Source: Eledone cirrhosa
Taxonomy: Eukaryota
Assembly (NCBI GenBank): GCA_964016885.1
Contig: OZ024742.1
Location: 62,248,001-62,312,000, forward strand
Length of the DNA stretch: 64,000 nt
Direction: 5' to 3'
The notes beneath the pieces were generated by a model that was given only the letters and a program-made list of their open reading frames with translations, was not told where the DNA came from and ran no database searches. The position numbers and the translations under genes were made by a program. Within the stretch, counting starts at the first letter, position 1; every line of letters starts with the position of its first letter. Shown piece by piece: positions 35,784 to 60,113 of this stretch.

Positions 35784-36927
35784 ATTTGTTTATTGAAAAA
35801 AACCCAACAAAGATTTAATATAAAAGGTCTGTTTGGGAACAGGTTTTGAATTGACCAATAGAAAAGTAGTTAGAGGTCAAGTTGATAGATTAGTAGTAGT
35901 AGAAATTTAATTTAGGGGTAGAGGAGTGCAGACTTATGTTTTGAATGAAAAGAATACTTTGAATGAAAAGAATACTTTGGGGATGAAAAGAGGTCAAGCC
36001 AGTGAAAGGTACACGAAAATTTGATGTTATTAAAGAATAATGTTAAAAACGAAGGAAAATAAAATTTTAGGGTAAGGGTATTAGTGAGAAATACCAATCT
36101 TATTTAAACCACAAGGAATCTAGATCTATAACATGAAATTAAATTAATTGATAGGTATACTTATAGGGATAAATTTATATTAATTCATATGAATGTGATA
36201 AATAAGAATTAGATGTTATTAAAGAGTGTTGTTAAAAACGAAGGAAAATAAAATTTTGAGATAGGGGTAGTAGTGATAAATACCAATCTTATATAAACTA
36301 CATGGAATCTAGATTCATAACAGGAAATTAAATTAATTTATAGGTATACTTTTAGGTATTAATTTTAGGAAAAGAGAGCTGTAAGAGGGAAATAAAATTA
36401 TGAAGTTCTCTGTAGTAAAGTACTAATTATAGGTTAACTAAATTAAAAAAACTAATTATAATAATATGTAAAATATAAGTGTAAGGTGTATATTAATTAG
36501 GTTTATAATATTTGAAGGTTCTTCTAATTCTATGATTGCAAGATATAATTAATTCCTGTCGCTTATTTAATAGGATATCCTTAGATTTCATTATTTCAAA
36601 AAGTTCCTGGGAGCATAATCTACACTCGTATCTGTTATTTTGATAAGGCCCTTTTGAGCACACTCCAGGTCAGGTTGTAATCGATATTCTTCTTTCTATA
36701 ATTATTAATTGTTTCAGCCAAGGATGTTGTATTAGCTAATGCGGCATTTTTAAAACTATGTTTGTGGGTATTAAATCTTACTTTAAATATAATCTTACTA
36801 AAAATATAAATATTAAAACAATGAAATTAAACAAAAAACGGTTAATTCATAGTAAAACTCATTATTTTACGATCGTTTCTGGGGGTAGTTCCCCGTATGT
36901 CCATTCTATTATTGATCTATGTAATAA

Positions 36928-37065
36928 TCATTATTTCTGAAGACGGCGGGTAGTAAAGACTTATGTATATTTTCTTACTATGATATTTTGTAATATATTT
37001 TACATAGATCAATAACAGAATGGACATACGGGGAACTACCCCCAGAAACGATCGTAAAATAATGA
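36928..37065 (+). ncRNA. Hammerhead ribozyme with ~101-nt stem II region
   Basis: tcattattt-CTGAAGA-cggcgggtagt...actaccccca-GAAA-cgatcg-TA-aaataatga. Confidence 0.7.
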
Positions 37066-37133
37066 GTTATTATCAATATTAGAAAAACTCAGATTACATT
37101 TATATATATATATATATATATATATATGAATAA

Positions 37134-37931
37134 AAATAGACAAGGGATAAAATGTCCTCTTCAGTAGTCTGCTGATTATCGTTGGCATTTCGACGCATTA
37201 AAGACTAGGCCCCTAAAATCAGTGCGAGCGATAACATTATTGAGTTATCGGGACAGTGGGAAAACAGAGGGAAGGAAACAAACACATGGTGGTATGCAAC
37301 GTAAAGAGAGGAAAATAGAAACAAGTCAATGAATCCTGTGGGCTTAAGCCCGACAAATCAAATTGACGAGGAGAAATAGACGCGTCCGAGCGGCGGGAAG
37401 ATTGAGAGAGGAAAGAAATTCAGGCAGGTCAGGCGGGAAGAAGTGAGAGGGGGGGAGAGAAGCAGAGAGAGAGAGAGAGTGAGTGACTTTTTCTGTCACT
37501 TTACTGCTATCACCTTTTCTCTCTCCTTCACCTCTTGCCATCCTCAACTCTCGCTGCTGGTCACTCACTCTCGGCTGGCCCCTTCCGCCCACTTCCACTC
37601 ACTCCCTCTCTACTTCTCCCCCCTCTCACTTCCTCCCGTCTGACCTGCTTGAATTTCTATCCTCTCTCAATCTTCTCGCCGCTCGGACGTGTCTATTTCT
37701 CCTCGTCAATTTGATTTGTCGGGCTTAAGCCCACAGGATTCATTGACTTGTCTCTATTTTCCTCTCTTTACATTGCATACCACCATGTGTTTGTTTCCTT
37801 CCCTCTGTTTTCCAACTCTCCCGATAACTTAATTGAGTTATCGTTCGCACTGATTTTAGGTATCTAGTCTTTAATGCGTCGAAATACCAACGATAATCAG
37901 CAGACTACTGAAGAGGACATTTTACCCCTTG

Positions 37932-37938
<7 letters not shown>
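37134..37938. mobile_element. Fold-back element, ~345-bp arms, inserted in (TA)n
   Basis: Arms about 37134-37482 / 37597-37938; mirrored ORFs both end LFLLVNLICRA. Confidence 0.9.
37822..37920 (+). ncRNA. Candidate rearranged (non-circularly permuted) hammerhead ribozyme, copy 1
   Basis: ggta-TC-tagtct...gtc-GAAA-tacc...agacta-CTGAAGA-g; covaries with 42224-42320. Confidence 0.6.
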
Positions 37939-38001
<63 letters not shown>

Positions 38002-38744: not shown

Positions 38745-38947
38745 TAGGAAAAAGTATGACCCCGACGGCAGAGCTCAAGCCGTTTCGACGGATATTTCTG
38801 GACTCGAAATAGTCCAGAAATAGCCGTCGAAACGGCTTGAGCTCTGCCGTCGGGGTCATACTTTTTCCTATTTCCCACTCTACTACCCTAAGTATTGAGT
38901 ATTCTGGTGCGCTATGGTCCAGCTGGTTCCTTACCACAATTCCTTTG

Positions 38948-39646: not shown

Positions 39647-40185
39647 TGAGGTCTGTAAAAATAGTCAGAAGTCTACAATCAGCCCCCCCCCCCGCCCTCA
39701 AACACACGTATATATATTTTTTTTTTCAAGGTTCAATTATGCTAAGCAGACTAAAGAATTTTTTGTAAGTGGCTGCATTAACATGCTGTGTTAAAGTTTA
39801 CAAAATGGTCAGTTCTTTACACTCACACACAACCACACACGCGCGCACGCTCACGCACATACACACACACACATGTATTTACATATGTGTGTGTATATAT
39901 ATGTATATACATATGTATATATGTGGGTATTTATAGATATATATGTATGTATATGTACACATGTGTGTGTGTGTATGTGCGTGAGCGTGCGCGCCTGTGT
40001 GGTTGTGTGTGAGTGTAAAGAACTGACCATTTTGTAAACTTTAACACAGCATGTTAATGCAGCCACTTACAAAATATTCTTTAGTCTGCTTAGCATAATT
40101 GAACCTTGAAAAAAAAATATATATACGTGTGTTTGAGGGGGGGGGGTGGCTGATTGTAGACATCTGACCATTTTTGCAGACCTCA
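39647..40185. repeat. Fold-back with ~235-bp arms and a microsatellite-like spacer
   Basis: tgaggtctgtaaaaat...cacatgta versus its reverse complement ending ...tttttgcagacctca. Confidence 0.85.
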
Positions 40186-41174: not shown

Positions 41175-42223
41175 ATATATATATATATACACAATAAACT
41201 AATATATGGCTCCTTCCCTCTCAATGTAAACACAAGTATACATTACGTACATATACAAACTATCTGCTACAGACATCCGTACATAAACCCGTACATAAAC
41301 CCATAAACAATGAGTCAGCACCCATCTAGCTGTCGAAACGGCCGGAGCTCAGCCGTTAGGGTCCTAACTCTTTTCCTATTACCTACTCTACTACCCTAAA
41401 TATCGAATACGTTGGTATCTTACCCGACCTTCTTTCTATATACATATAATTTCTGCACCCATCTCTAGCAGAATAAACTTTCACTTTTGTTGATATCTCT
41501 AACCTTGAGATGAATGACTATTCTGAGTCTCCTCTAGTTTAATTATAATAGATAGTTTGTGATCGATAACTGGTGACATAGATTGATTTTAAATCAAAGT
41601 CTACGGAATACGAAATAGCGCTATAGGGTCTCTAATGATTTCATCTAGAGTACATATTCCTCTCTGTAATATGTAGTATATATACAATACACTGTCTTTG
41701 GATATATGTGTCCTACCCTCTCTATATATGTATATATACATTTTACATTTGACTTATTGCTGTGAATAATGTCTGTAGCAAGGCGGTCAGCAGTGAAATA
41801 AAAAGGTCTATAAGAAATCAGAAGGCATTTTGATTGAAAACAAACATAGGAATTTATTAAGTCATGTGACAAGCATGACTAATGCAGAATAGGTGACAAA
41901 GATGTAGAAATCTAGCAGCAACTGAACTATTCAGTTTAAATTTTCGAGCCTGTCGGAAGTGACGCCACCGAGCCTTTGCGCATGTACTCACAATATGTCT
42001 ATTGAGCTTGTTTATTGAGAATCACAAAATTCTGACATACTTAATATATGACTGTCTTTTCGCTCGCCCATACGCTCTTGAACTTAAGGTCCGTTATCGC
42101 TATGGTCTTGGATTTTCTTACCTTCAGTTGCTCGCACATTGCTCGGTTTGTTTGTTTTTTTCGCTGTTTTTCTCTTTTCTTCCTTTTCCCTTCTATTTTC
42201 CTTCCCTCCCTTCTCCGTTTTCC

Positions 42224-42320
42224 CAATAACTTGCCCAGCTATTGAACGCTCTGGGCGGTAGATATCTTGTCTTTCAAGCGTGGAAATATCCGAGACTCCC
42301 AGTAGACAACTGATGAGTAA
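42224..42320 (+). ncRNA. Candidate rearranged hammerhead ribozyme, copy 2
   Basis: gata-TC-ttgtct...gtg-GAAA-tatc...agacaa-CTGATGA-g; about 45 nt before (TA)n. Confidence 0.6.
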
Positions 42321-42699
42321 CCTCCGTTCTTGCTTTCTTCTTATTCTCACTCCATTTTAAGCTATATATATATATATATATCAGAATGGGTGTGGTAAAA
42401 TATCTGGTGGACCATAACCCACCAGAGTACTGGATACTTGGAGTAGTAGAGTGGGTAATGTGAAAAGAATCAGGACCCCAACAGCTGAGAACGGGTCGCT
42501 GGGGGTAGATAGCGATACATCCTCCAGATATGATGGTTAGTTGAGGAATATGTGGGTAGTGCAAGACGAATAAGCAATGCCCAGACTAACAGAAGTAAGC
42601 TACTAACAGTAATGGAGCAAAGCTAGACATCAGATTGGTTACTCTGGTAAATAAGACCACCAAAACTGCAGTATAGTGAGAGGTAAGAAAAAGAATCAT

Positions 42700-54984: not shown

Positions 54985-55017
<33 letters not shown>

Positions 55018-55020
<3 letters not shown>

Positions 55021-56766
55021 AACTGTTCAAAACATTTTTATGCTTACAACTGTTTCCTCCAAACCGAGGTTTGGATTCTTCGGAGCAATTTATTATTGAA
55101 TGAACACTTATATGACCTCCTTTTCACCCAAGAGACATACAGATACATATGCAAATATTGTGGGTCAACATTCATTACAGCATTTAGAATGGCAGTACAC
55201 ACTTAGAGATTACATTCATATTAAAAGATACAATCAGAAATACAGGTTAAAATACAACATGAAGATAAGCGGTTATATAGTGCAAAGGTTATATGTGTGG
55301 CAAGCACTGTGCGGAGGTAGTGCCATCGTTGGACAAATGAAAAACGAATTAATCTAGTAACGCTGATGAGCAGTATGGCCGGTATGCTGAGTGCAGGGAA
55401 TGAATGTATTGCAGGTGGCGTATGGGTTGTACATATATGGATGATTTGATGGTCAGATTGGAGTCATGAGGACTGTGGATTGACCTCTAGTCGGCCCTGG
55501 TGATGATTATCTTTCGACATCCAATGTAGCAAGTGATGACCCAGAACTTACCAGAGATCATTGTGTGTTGAAGTGATTCTGCAATCACCGCGCCTGGTCC
55601 TCTGAGTAGACTGCAACCACAGAGATCATTAATTTAGAATCCTCGCTCGTCGTCTATAATATTCATTTGTGGCACTCTACGATGGGGGTTAATCACCATA
55701 ATAATACGAACACCTTCAGCACAACTTAATAGACTACTCTATAGTTAAAACACTTTAAATTTTAGAAATTTTTTAGAAATTGCGCATAACCATATAAGTT
55801 AGGGTCTATTTTGAGACACATTTTAATAGTTAGTAATAGAAACCTCGGAGTTACCTCCCCTCATGCATTAACTCCCCTTAGCCACACACACACTTCCGGG
55901 TAGTATTTCGATGTCGATTCTCGAAACATAACATCCTCCTGTATTGAACTAAAGAACATCAGACTACGATTCTCTAACTGGATTGTCAAACGCTCAATAT
56001 CGAATCGTCGTGGATTATGTGAGGGGCATATAATCTGAAAAATACGATCCCCAGACTATGAAAATGTCGAAGTGCATGAAGTCCATATCATCGCTTCTCT
56101 GCGCATTTCCAATATTTATAATATTTTTAATGCTTACACTATTTTTAATGCTTATATTATTTCTCCACACACAGACTATAACAACCATATAAAGAATTTG
56201 TCACCAGATCAACCAACCTGACACTCTTGTTTACCTGCTTAAGTGCTTCTACTACACGTAACTCTCTGCCACACTATATAAACAAGACGCACGTGCTTGC
56301 CACACATATAACCTTTGCACTATATAACCGCTTATTTTCATGTTGTATTTTAACCTGTATTTTTGATTGTATCTTTTAATATGAATGTAATCTCTAAGGG
56401 TGTACTGCCACTCTAAATGCTGTAATGAATGTTGACCCACAATATTTGCATATGTATCTGTATGTCTCTTGGGTGAAAAGGAGGTCATATAAGTGTTCAT
56501 TCAATAATAAATTGCTCCGAAGAATTCAAACCTCGGTTTGGAGGAAACAGTTGTAAGCATAAAAATGTTTTGAACAGTTCTTTGATTCTTATAATTCATA
56601 TAACTGCTCTGTAAATAATCTGATGTTTTTACATTGAGCTACTTAACTTACTGGTAATAAGGTAGTAATATATTACTGCCTACCACTATTTAGGGTTTGT
56701 ATAAAAATATATATAACTGCAAAAGGTTTTTGTATTTACATAACCATAAATAGTATAATTAATACT
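55018..56766 (+). mobile_element. PLE-type element with 290-bp inverted repeats (55018-55307 / 56293-56582), ~1-kb spacer and tail, in (TA)n
   Basis: Mirrored ORFs at 55100(+) and 56500(-); HHR motif in each arm; possible VYLLKC remnant in the spacer. Confidence 0.85.
56513..56559 (+). ncRNA. Hammerhead variant with CCGAAGA core (mirror copy 55041-55087, -)
   Basis: tgct-CCGAAGA-at(t/c)caaacc tc ggtttggag-GAAA-cagttg-TA-agca. Confidence 0.65.
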
Positions 56767-57419: not shown

Positions 57420-57818
57420 CACACACAAGTGAATAAACCTAGTGAGAGCATGGATGTAAACATATACATACACACAGACACACTGGTATACATCCATGCA
57501 ACACAAAGTCTATACATATTCCCAAACGCTCCCCAACCAAACTGGCAGATTTGATTTGGAACCTCAACATGCCAGATCAAATAGTCAGTTAGAAGACGTG
57601 TGGCCTAATCCCCTACTGGGGGAGACCACTGCAGGTTATGCCTGGCCGAGTCGGCCAAGATCATCAAATTAAAATCGGCCGTAAATTCGAGATAGGACAT
57701 CATAATAAACTGTAGATATACCAGGTAAAACACTTTCGTCGCATTGGCATTCGGGTACGTGCCGTGCCATGGACAGACCCATAACTTAAACACGACATAG
57801 GGATAATTACCACTATTT

Positions 57819-59163: not shown

Positions 59164-59170
<7 letters not shown>

Positions 59171-60113
59171 ATGTTGAAAAGGTAACACACCAGAGAGAGA
59201 TATACAGTGCACTATCAATAAAACAGGGAAGAAAACCACCAGTGTATGGAATCTATAACCTATGAAAGGCAGACGATAATTAAAAATATAAATTAAAGCG
59301 TAAATAAATACCTTTATTACTATATAACACACGTACAAATCCAAAGATACTAATCCAAAGATATGTTTCACCAGTAATTTGTTGAAAGAAATGGGTTAGC
59401 CTCGGTTCATCAACGTGTGTAAGGCTATACATTTCAGACAACACTAAGAGAATTTTAAAAGTGACTGTCCAGCTACACGTGGGAGAGAGAAGTCACAGCG
59501 TGTTTAAGGGCAGTGAATCAGTGGCCTCTGAGGGACGAACTGCTAGAAAGGGCAGCCCAAAGCCACTCAGAGAAGTGTGCTCAACCAAACAGAGATAGTT
59601 TGGTTGAGCACACTTCTCGGGGTGGCTTTGGGCTGCCCTTTCTAGCAGTTCGTGCCTCAGACGCCACTGATTCACTACCCTTAAACACGCTGTGACTTCT
59701 CTCGCCCACGTGTAGCTGGAAGTCACTTTTAAAATTCTCTTAGTGTTGTCTGAAATGTATAGCATTACACACGCTGATGAACTGAGGCTAACTCATTTCT
59801 TTCAACAAATTACTGGTGAAACATATCTTTGGATTAGTATCTTTGGATTTGTACGTGTGTTATATAGTTATAAAGGTATTTACGCTTTAATTTATATTTT
59901 TAATTATCGTGTCTATAGTATGCCTTTCATAGGTTATAGATTCCATACACTGGTGGTTTTCTTCCCTGTTTTATTGATAGCGCACTGTATATCTCTCTCT
60001 GGTGTGTTACCTTTTCAACATATTGTATTTTAAACAGCTCAGGATTTCTTCTCCTTTGAGCACATTATTTACAGGGAATAGCGAGGGCCTATGCCTCCGT
60101 TAATTTATCGTGG
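59164..60113 (+). mobile_element. Fold-back element (~430-bp arms, 7-nt loop) + 85-bp tail in (TA)n
   Basis: Arms 59164-59590 / 59598-60028. Confidence 0.9.
59767..59860 (+). ncRNA. Hammerhead ribozyme in the fold-back arm
   Basis: acacacg-CTGATGA-act..ggt-GAAA-ca...tg-TA-cgtgtgt. Confidence 0.65.

Follow-up and report, generated by a model that had tools for sequence, protein, structure and literature searches.

A candidate hammerhead ribozyme in non-circular order, with a split catalytic strand, on non-coding Penelope-like repeats of an animal genome

Two sites in the window (the whole stretch of 64,000 nucleotides that was analyzed) carry what we read, with a probability of roughly 70%, as a permuted hammerhead ribozyme: its blocks follow the published SGC order, its CUGAnGA strand is split, and it resides on non-coding Penelope-like repeats likely derived from the ends of Naiad elements, with self-cleavage predicted 3' of AUC. 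Comparison of many copies establishes the parts on which this reading stands: stems I and III together with the helices X, Y, P0 and P1, a core that does not vary, and units that lie in tandem or inverted and end at (TA)n. The scrambled, non-circular arrangement that the sequence-only reading had claimed for both sites was confirmed, with the cleavage site, GAAA and CUGAnGA following one another in that order in each. Spacing within the core is the same in the two copies (18 nt from U16.1 to GAAA and 27 nt from G12 to CUGAnGA), and 44 of the 72 nt around the core are identical between them.

Helices and core of both copies were read from the sequence. Copy 1, a member of family 1, occupies 37817..37919 on the plus strand. 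Its 5' strands belong to P0 (37817-21), the P1 hairpin (37822-43), stem II, here called X (37845-49), and Y (37850-55). Stem III (37859-63/37884-88) and stem I (37865-70/37902-07) flank H17, which is C37864, and by analogy with the hammerhead core the scissile bond is predicted 3' of AUC, at 37864..37865. Beyond it lie a UUAA linker (37871-74), the 3' strand of X (37875-79), C11.1 (37880) and GAAA (37881-84), followed by the 3' strand of Y (37895-900), CUGAAGA (37908-14), G10.1 (37915) and the 3' strand of P0, which runs to 37919. Copy 2, of family 2 (42217..42323, plus strand), presents P0 (42217-23), P1 (42224-44), X (42246-50), Y (42251-55) and stem III (42261-65) before H17 (C42266), and then stem I (42267-72/42304-09), the X 3' strand (42277-81), a G at position 11.1 (42282), GAAA (42283-86), the Y 3' strand (42298-302) and CUGAUGA (42310-16); its P0 3' strand is mutated. 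The same analogy places its predicted scissile bond 3' of AUC (C17), at 42266..42267.

All five helices previously listed for these sites were found in their places, except that the 5' hairpin of copy 2 contains one A.C mismatch. The helix described as lying where stem II would sit is read here as the distal part of stem II itself, with a partner strand contributed by the 5' leader. Two further elements emerged: P0, in which the 3' tail pairs with the 5' leader, and a covarying single pair between positions 10.1 and 11.1. One change weakens P0 in copy 1, and copy 2 is damaged or unpaired at P0, the linker and 10.1-11.1; judged by their letters, both are slightly decayed members of their families, copy 2 more so. 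Copy 1, with its intact core and G10.1-C11.1, may still be able to cut, and the predicted cleavage of copy 2 is probably impaired. A search of copy 1 against Rfam returned no hammerhead match up to an E value of 10, and there was no hammerhead among the 150 of 168 Rfam matches listed for the window. A motif-profile match at 57734-57806 on the minus strand was too weak (E 0.12) to be accepted and is possibly a very old relative.

Copy 1 is carried by a 5'-truncated unit of a 530-nt family-1 repeat (37488..37937, plus strand; 94% to the tandem dimer at locus L012; TRF), which ends about 73 nt past the predicted cut, at a (TA)n tract (37934-37998). The same insertion includes an inverted, 5'-truncated second arm on the minus strand (37128..37485) that ends at another (TA)n tract (37101-37127), so that the two arms stand back to back between two such tracts, copy 1 belonging to the right one. 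Within the inverted arm we found a third, broken copy of the motif (37152-37255, minus strand), absent from the earlier list, whose cleavage triplet is destroyed. The carrier of copy 2 is likewise a 5'-truncated unit, of a family-2 repeat of about 550 nt (42049..42363, plus strand; 87-93% to locus L036), and terminates at a (TA)n tract starting at 42364. The copy 2 locus lies inside a local segmental duplication (L031-L033) with three copies about 52-66 kb apart and about 97% identity.

Copy counts were taken from this animal's genome (G000; 3.0 Gb), in which the carriers form a superfamily of non-coding, (TA)n-inserted, Penelope-like repeats of 460-640 nt with at least 4,135 copies. That number is the count of exact matches to the pattern for P1, the 5' hairpin, which had none in a reversed control; additional subfamilies gave 800 and 258 exact pattern matches, and the two window families 1,272 and 1,993 first-look candidates, 40 of which were scored per family. 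Units measure 459-637 nt, and their longest ATG frames encode 103 and 81 aa. Families 1, 2 and 5 can be aligned over the motif alone and not across the remaining unit. Family 1 is young, with a mean divergence of 1.8%, and an older family without P1 (that with 258 matches) is more decayed and retains P0, X, Y, stems I and III, and G10.1-C11.1. When families with another X were sought, nine matches turned up vs six in the control, mostly mutated known copies.

The 127 loci compared include 29 tandem neighbors and 21 inverted ones, 19 of the latter back-to-back; at (TA)n, the 3' ends of the repeats group at two places some 40 nt from each other, like the tails of Penelope-like elements (PLEs). 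This tandem and inverted arrangement at (TA)n matches the Penelope-like insertion signature in the available text of two studies (PMC8557442, PMC11167929). The (TA)n targets, the inverted 5'-truncated arm and the tail are all present, a combination common to other PLE clades and not diagnostic of Naiad alone.

The fold was evaluated in 177 distinct in-register copies, 143 of them in nine clusters of at least three and 34 in smaller clusters excluded from the cluster counts. An alignment of 18 representatives with 36 proposed pairs had 92.3% of its cells paired, and 18 of the 36 pairs had changed on both sides, which bears out the claim that helices are kept despite sequence change. None of 500 shuffles scored as high and slid controls reached at most 50%, counts that are not probabilities, as the subfamilies are related and their relatedness was ignored. 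Stems I and III are paired in 96% and 100% of cells, with three and two pairs changed on both sides. Helix Y, supplied by the 5' leader, joins stems I and II at their distal ends, and five of its six pairs changed on both sides. P0, formed by the tail after A9 and the leader just 5' of the P1 hairpin, is paired in 76.7% of cells here, with four rows of the alignment shifted out of register by one base; of 38 copies per family, 32 have a 5-bp P0 in family 1 and 18 a 7-bp P0 in family 2. Compensatory changes occur in all helices, and the inner pair of X and P0 both covary. Single-strand folding, a method to which knots are inaccessible, recovered the nested subset alone (P0, P1, Y and III), with weak z values (-1.2 and -0.3) for the window copies.

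Across the nine subfamily majorities, none of 11 core positions varies (C3, U4, G5, A6, G8, A9, G12, A13, A14, A15.1 and U16.1), a result that is partly circular, many copies having been fetched with patterns containing core letters. The low mutation rate of the core within families was set aside because copies had been selected on those letters; among 30 copies selected on P1 only, both core boxes were intact in 22, by eye. Between the same majorities N7 takes three states and H17 two (C or A), and variation extends to all six positions of the Y 3' strand, to all 12 of the tail, and to 10.1 and 11.1. No sequence pattern that had been named as contrary to the sequence-only reading was found: the core is conserved, and variation, with compensation, is seen at N7, at H17 and in the stems. 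The letters of a K-turn (a 3-nt bulge, then tandem G.A/A.G) are complete in 73 of 177 copies and in six of the nine cluster majorities, and are incomplete in both window families, where one G is replaced.

These conservation patterns bear on whether the motif is a ribozyme at all. It is unlikely that the fold, though real, is non-catalytic or barely catalytic in the repeats of this genome and is kept as a structural signal, for instance for binding of a Penelope protein or for RNA-end protection. In favor of such a role, P1 keeps its sequence in addition to its structure; pair 10.1-11.1 takes forms other than G-C and is missing from most of family 2; and insertion by Poseidon in vitro did not, in the published account available to us, need hammerhead cleavage (PMC11167929). 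The invariance of 11 core positions across nine subfamilies, with N7 and H17 varying exactly as catalysis allows, argues against it.

Similar motifs were also found outside this genome. A metagenome scan yielded three matches, one of which (L133) was rejected as a chance match; in the other two, L132 and L134, all six helices are fully paired with different letters. Rfam reported no hammerhead in either. The L132 motif lies 260 nt behind a reverse transcriptase (RT) ORF that ends without an endonuclease, the 5' part of the ORF lying outside the contig sequence examined. By eye, this RT resembles published Naiad RT motifs; Pfam assigned the ORF no family, and the Atlas places it with eukaryotic RT/HTH_animal clusters. 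Among viral contigs there were 19 pattern matches, none with both stems, and no RT relative.

Chance resemblance within a repeat, afterwards spread by transposition, has close to negligible probability. Copies within a family are near-identical, and copy number alone is thus no proof. A descriptor specific for the order site-GAAA-CUGAnGA, with a stem I of at least 6 pairs and a stem III of at least 4 plus the A-U, nevertheless found two sites in the window vs none in 100 shuffled windows, and local shuffles attained 10 of 10 pairs in only 18 and 8 of 200,000 draws. The compensatory changes in all helices, the recurrence of the fold in unrelated sequences and the lack of both stems in any of the viral matches point the same way, and the compensatory pairs of L132 and L134 already refute a coincidence.

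The single pair between 10.1 and 11.1 can form in 119 of 177 copies and in eight of nine clusters, as U-A, G-C, A-U or G-U (permutation p 0.024), and fails in the other 58 copies. Family 2 is mostly without it, 33 of 38 fetched copies having G.G; in independent family-2 sequences from runs X1-X3, which are contigs of one sample, position 11.1 is A, U or G. Its presence as G-C in cis in family 1 and in the older family without P1, together with the two to three in-cis pairs that copy 1 could make, is what an ordinary type SGC hammerhead would show if its stem II were formed in cis and were very short (1-3 bp), X, P0 and P1 then being peripheral or an off-switch. We regard that arrangement as distinctly unlikely: in L132 and L134, C11.1 finds no partner in the base that follows A9, and a G-C pair supplied by the 5' leader carries X up to G12; in addition, both P0 and the inner pair of X covary.

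We compared the split wiring with the permuted hammerheads already published. The sequence-only reading had been unsure whether the family was described. Its block order is in print, as type SGC (Eckert 2023, PMC10085705); the split wiring was not found there. According to the available parts of that paper, type SGC (HRIMA-1 and an SGC variant) was shown to cleave, at rates of 0.007-0.19 per min, and was known from metatranscriptomes only, with no example from a known organism's genome. In the literature searched, which lay outside subscription journals, permuted hammerheads appeared only in Eckert 2023, none was tied to Naiads, and this wiring was unreported. All 62 descriptor matches in our data (60 loci plus the window) have the order and spacing S-G-C, and none is CSG or GCS; at most one conserved stem II pair is made in cis, the leader making the remaining stem II and the tail forming P0.

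In the alignments of PMC10085705, as far as they were available, stem II is made entirely by the strand that follows CUGAnGA, which goes on to form the helix bridging stems I and II. Like type SGC, the motif described here has the S-G-C order and a complete core; in both, a short linker separates stem I from the 3' strand of stem II, and a bridging helix immediately precedes the 3' strand of stem I. The present motif differs in having the stem II and bridging strand at its 5' end, tied on by P0/P1. Type CSG has the same cyclic order, and its linker from stem I to stem II contains UUAA, as here; its block C, however, is whole, and it is known from two metagenome sequences in the same partly available source (PMC10085705). 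We infer that the motif would correspond to the CSG/SGC circle opened after A9 (or after 10.1), its CUGAnGA block having been split and rejoined through the P0/P1 junction, a wiring that we did not find in print. The Eckert 2023 authors assumed, in the text available, an uninterrupted block C, and their search pattern would miss a split form because it required CUGAUGA plus at least two further in-cis stem II pairs (PMC10085705). The two published CSG hammerheads, whose linker contains UUAA as that of the present motif does, were according to the same text drawn from DNA metagenomes; we would guess that they may be Naiad fragments.

Naiads themselves are described, in the passages of Craig et al. 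2021 available to us (PMC8557442), as lacking canonical hammerheads, some having an unexplained "half core". We inspected by eye passages of 23 of the 54 consensi in that source, some of them picked by motif search, so that the following counts are not frequencies. The split fold is complete in seven (three Acropora, Morbakka-2, two Octopus and one further entry) and partial in two (Euprymna and Beroe). Three carry a plain CSG arrangement (Naiad_Parc of Pristionchus arcanus, Naiad_Smim of Stegodyphus mimosarum, and one more), and 11 have no such motif in the passage inspected. As read by eye, then, the same fold is recognizable at the ends of several Naiads reported to be without a standard hammerhead. 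The octopus consensi share with the genomic motif their leader, P1 loop, internal-loop and post-A9 letters, and Naiads as there described also have (TA)n targets, tandem and inverted insertions and a 30-40-nt tail; in contrast, the repeats studied here encode no protein, and the Naiad RTs of this genome are decayed. No intact Naiad RT was found in it, the sequences being fragmentary or bearing stops (best non-self match 68%), and no motif was recognizable behind 29 Naiad RT remnants. Nor was a motif found behind 14 Naiad-like RT loci in genome_contigs, eight of which had more than 300 nt of 3' DNA.

Several observations concern other Naiad-like sequences. Fourteen bacterial genome records (L255-L268) have contigs encoding relatives of an animal Naiad-type RT, which are probably host DNA in bacterial assemblies. 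Four of these Naiad-like RT contigs share a conserved 3' motif that is twister-like by eye and has no match in Rfam (L255:1625-1705, L257:3400-3480, L264:890-1010 and L265:790-870), and the published Morbakka Naiad-1, in the sequence passage available, also ends in a twister-like motif (PMC8557442). Different Naiad lineages may use different ribozymes. Behind the Naiad-like RT of L255 there is also a SECIS-like match (1271-1334; 29 bits, below the gathering score); selenoprotein Naiads have been described in clams and spiders, according to the parts of PMC8557442 at hand.

We propose that the strand normally following A9, that is, stem II and then the helix bridging stems I and II, would have been relocated to the 5' end as the 5' strands of X and Y. 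P0 and the optional hairpin P1 would tie it to the A9 tail in a three- or four-way junction under G12.A9, and the Y/stem III loop, with K-turn letters in most subfamilies of this genome, would bend stem III towards stem I. In hammerhead chemistry, G12 and G8 catalyze attack by the 2'-OH of C17, leaving a 5'-OH and a 2',3'-cyclic phosphate. Transcripts reading through tandem units would then be cut once per unit into monomers of about 530 nt, which may circularize like other retrozymes, and a Penelope-type protein acting in trans would reverse-transcribe the monomer RNA and insert it at (TA)n.

That cleavage requires two tandem units paired as a dimer, or a host protein such as a K-turn binder, in the manner of minimal PLE hammerheads, seems very improbable to us. 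Minimal PLE hammerheads are described as weak dimers in the text available (PMC4209133), the units here are often tandem, and P0 could form between neighboring units. A stem III of 5 bp and helix Y within one unit mean that, on paper, no partner is needed, and many insertions have a single motif. In having tandem, non-coding units with one ribozyme motif each, the repeats resemble non-LTR retrozymes, which probably derive from the pLTRs of PLEs according to the available text of two sources (bioRxiv 10.64898/2026.07.22.740005; PMC4209133). They differ in their SGC order, as retrozymes are there defined by type I (circularly ordered) hammerheads, and type I descriptor searches would not see the present family.

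We lean towards the broader view, again from sequence, that non-circularly permuted hammerheads have their main natural home in Naiads and the non-coding repeats descended from them. Some lineages would use plain CSG; in others the permutation would go further, with its opening inside the catalytic core and with closure by a strand-exchange junction that can shift its crossover by one pair; the result would be an active ribozyme present in thousands of copies in animal genomes, and the seeming lack of hammerheads in Naiads would be explained. If this is true, non-circularly permuted ribozymes gain a host, moving from anonymous environmental RNA into animal genomes, and the notion of Naiads without hammerheads, a basis for suggesting that PLE hammerheads may be dispensable passengers, is overturned. 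The hammerhead core would also tolerate a backbone break at A9/10.1, and descriptor searches would miss a whole class. With many natural variants at hand, both the fold and its role in Penelope-like transposition are directly testable.

As to what moves the repeats, family 1 is young yet no intact Naiad RT was found in this genome, and another PLE may therefore mobilize it. A PLE with a C-terminal GIY-YIG domain (L061-L080) is very abundant and young, with 45,500 first-look candidates and open frames of up to about 1,240 aa; this intact family was rejected as the autonomous partner, the type I minimal hammerhead in its pLTR being an ordinary one. The GIY-YIG fragments lying next to some copies of the motif are separate insertions, and an RT fragment (L196) considered as part of a unit is instead a target.

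Ordinary hammerheads occur nearby as well. A tandem repeat of 313 nt whose type I hammerhead has a palindromic stem III (L056:1725-1760 and 2038-2072; L015:643-680) is an ordinary retrozyme adjoining scrambled ones. The minus strand of the window contains five ordinary type I minimal hammerheads with a stem I of 7-8 bp (C3 at 63858, 62068, 61209, 16486 and 13629). Long inverted repeats adjoin (TA)n at 36800-37060, 38748-38860, 39718-40117, 55007-56593 and 59164-60028 of the window, and are probably other inverted retroelement insertions.
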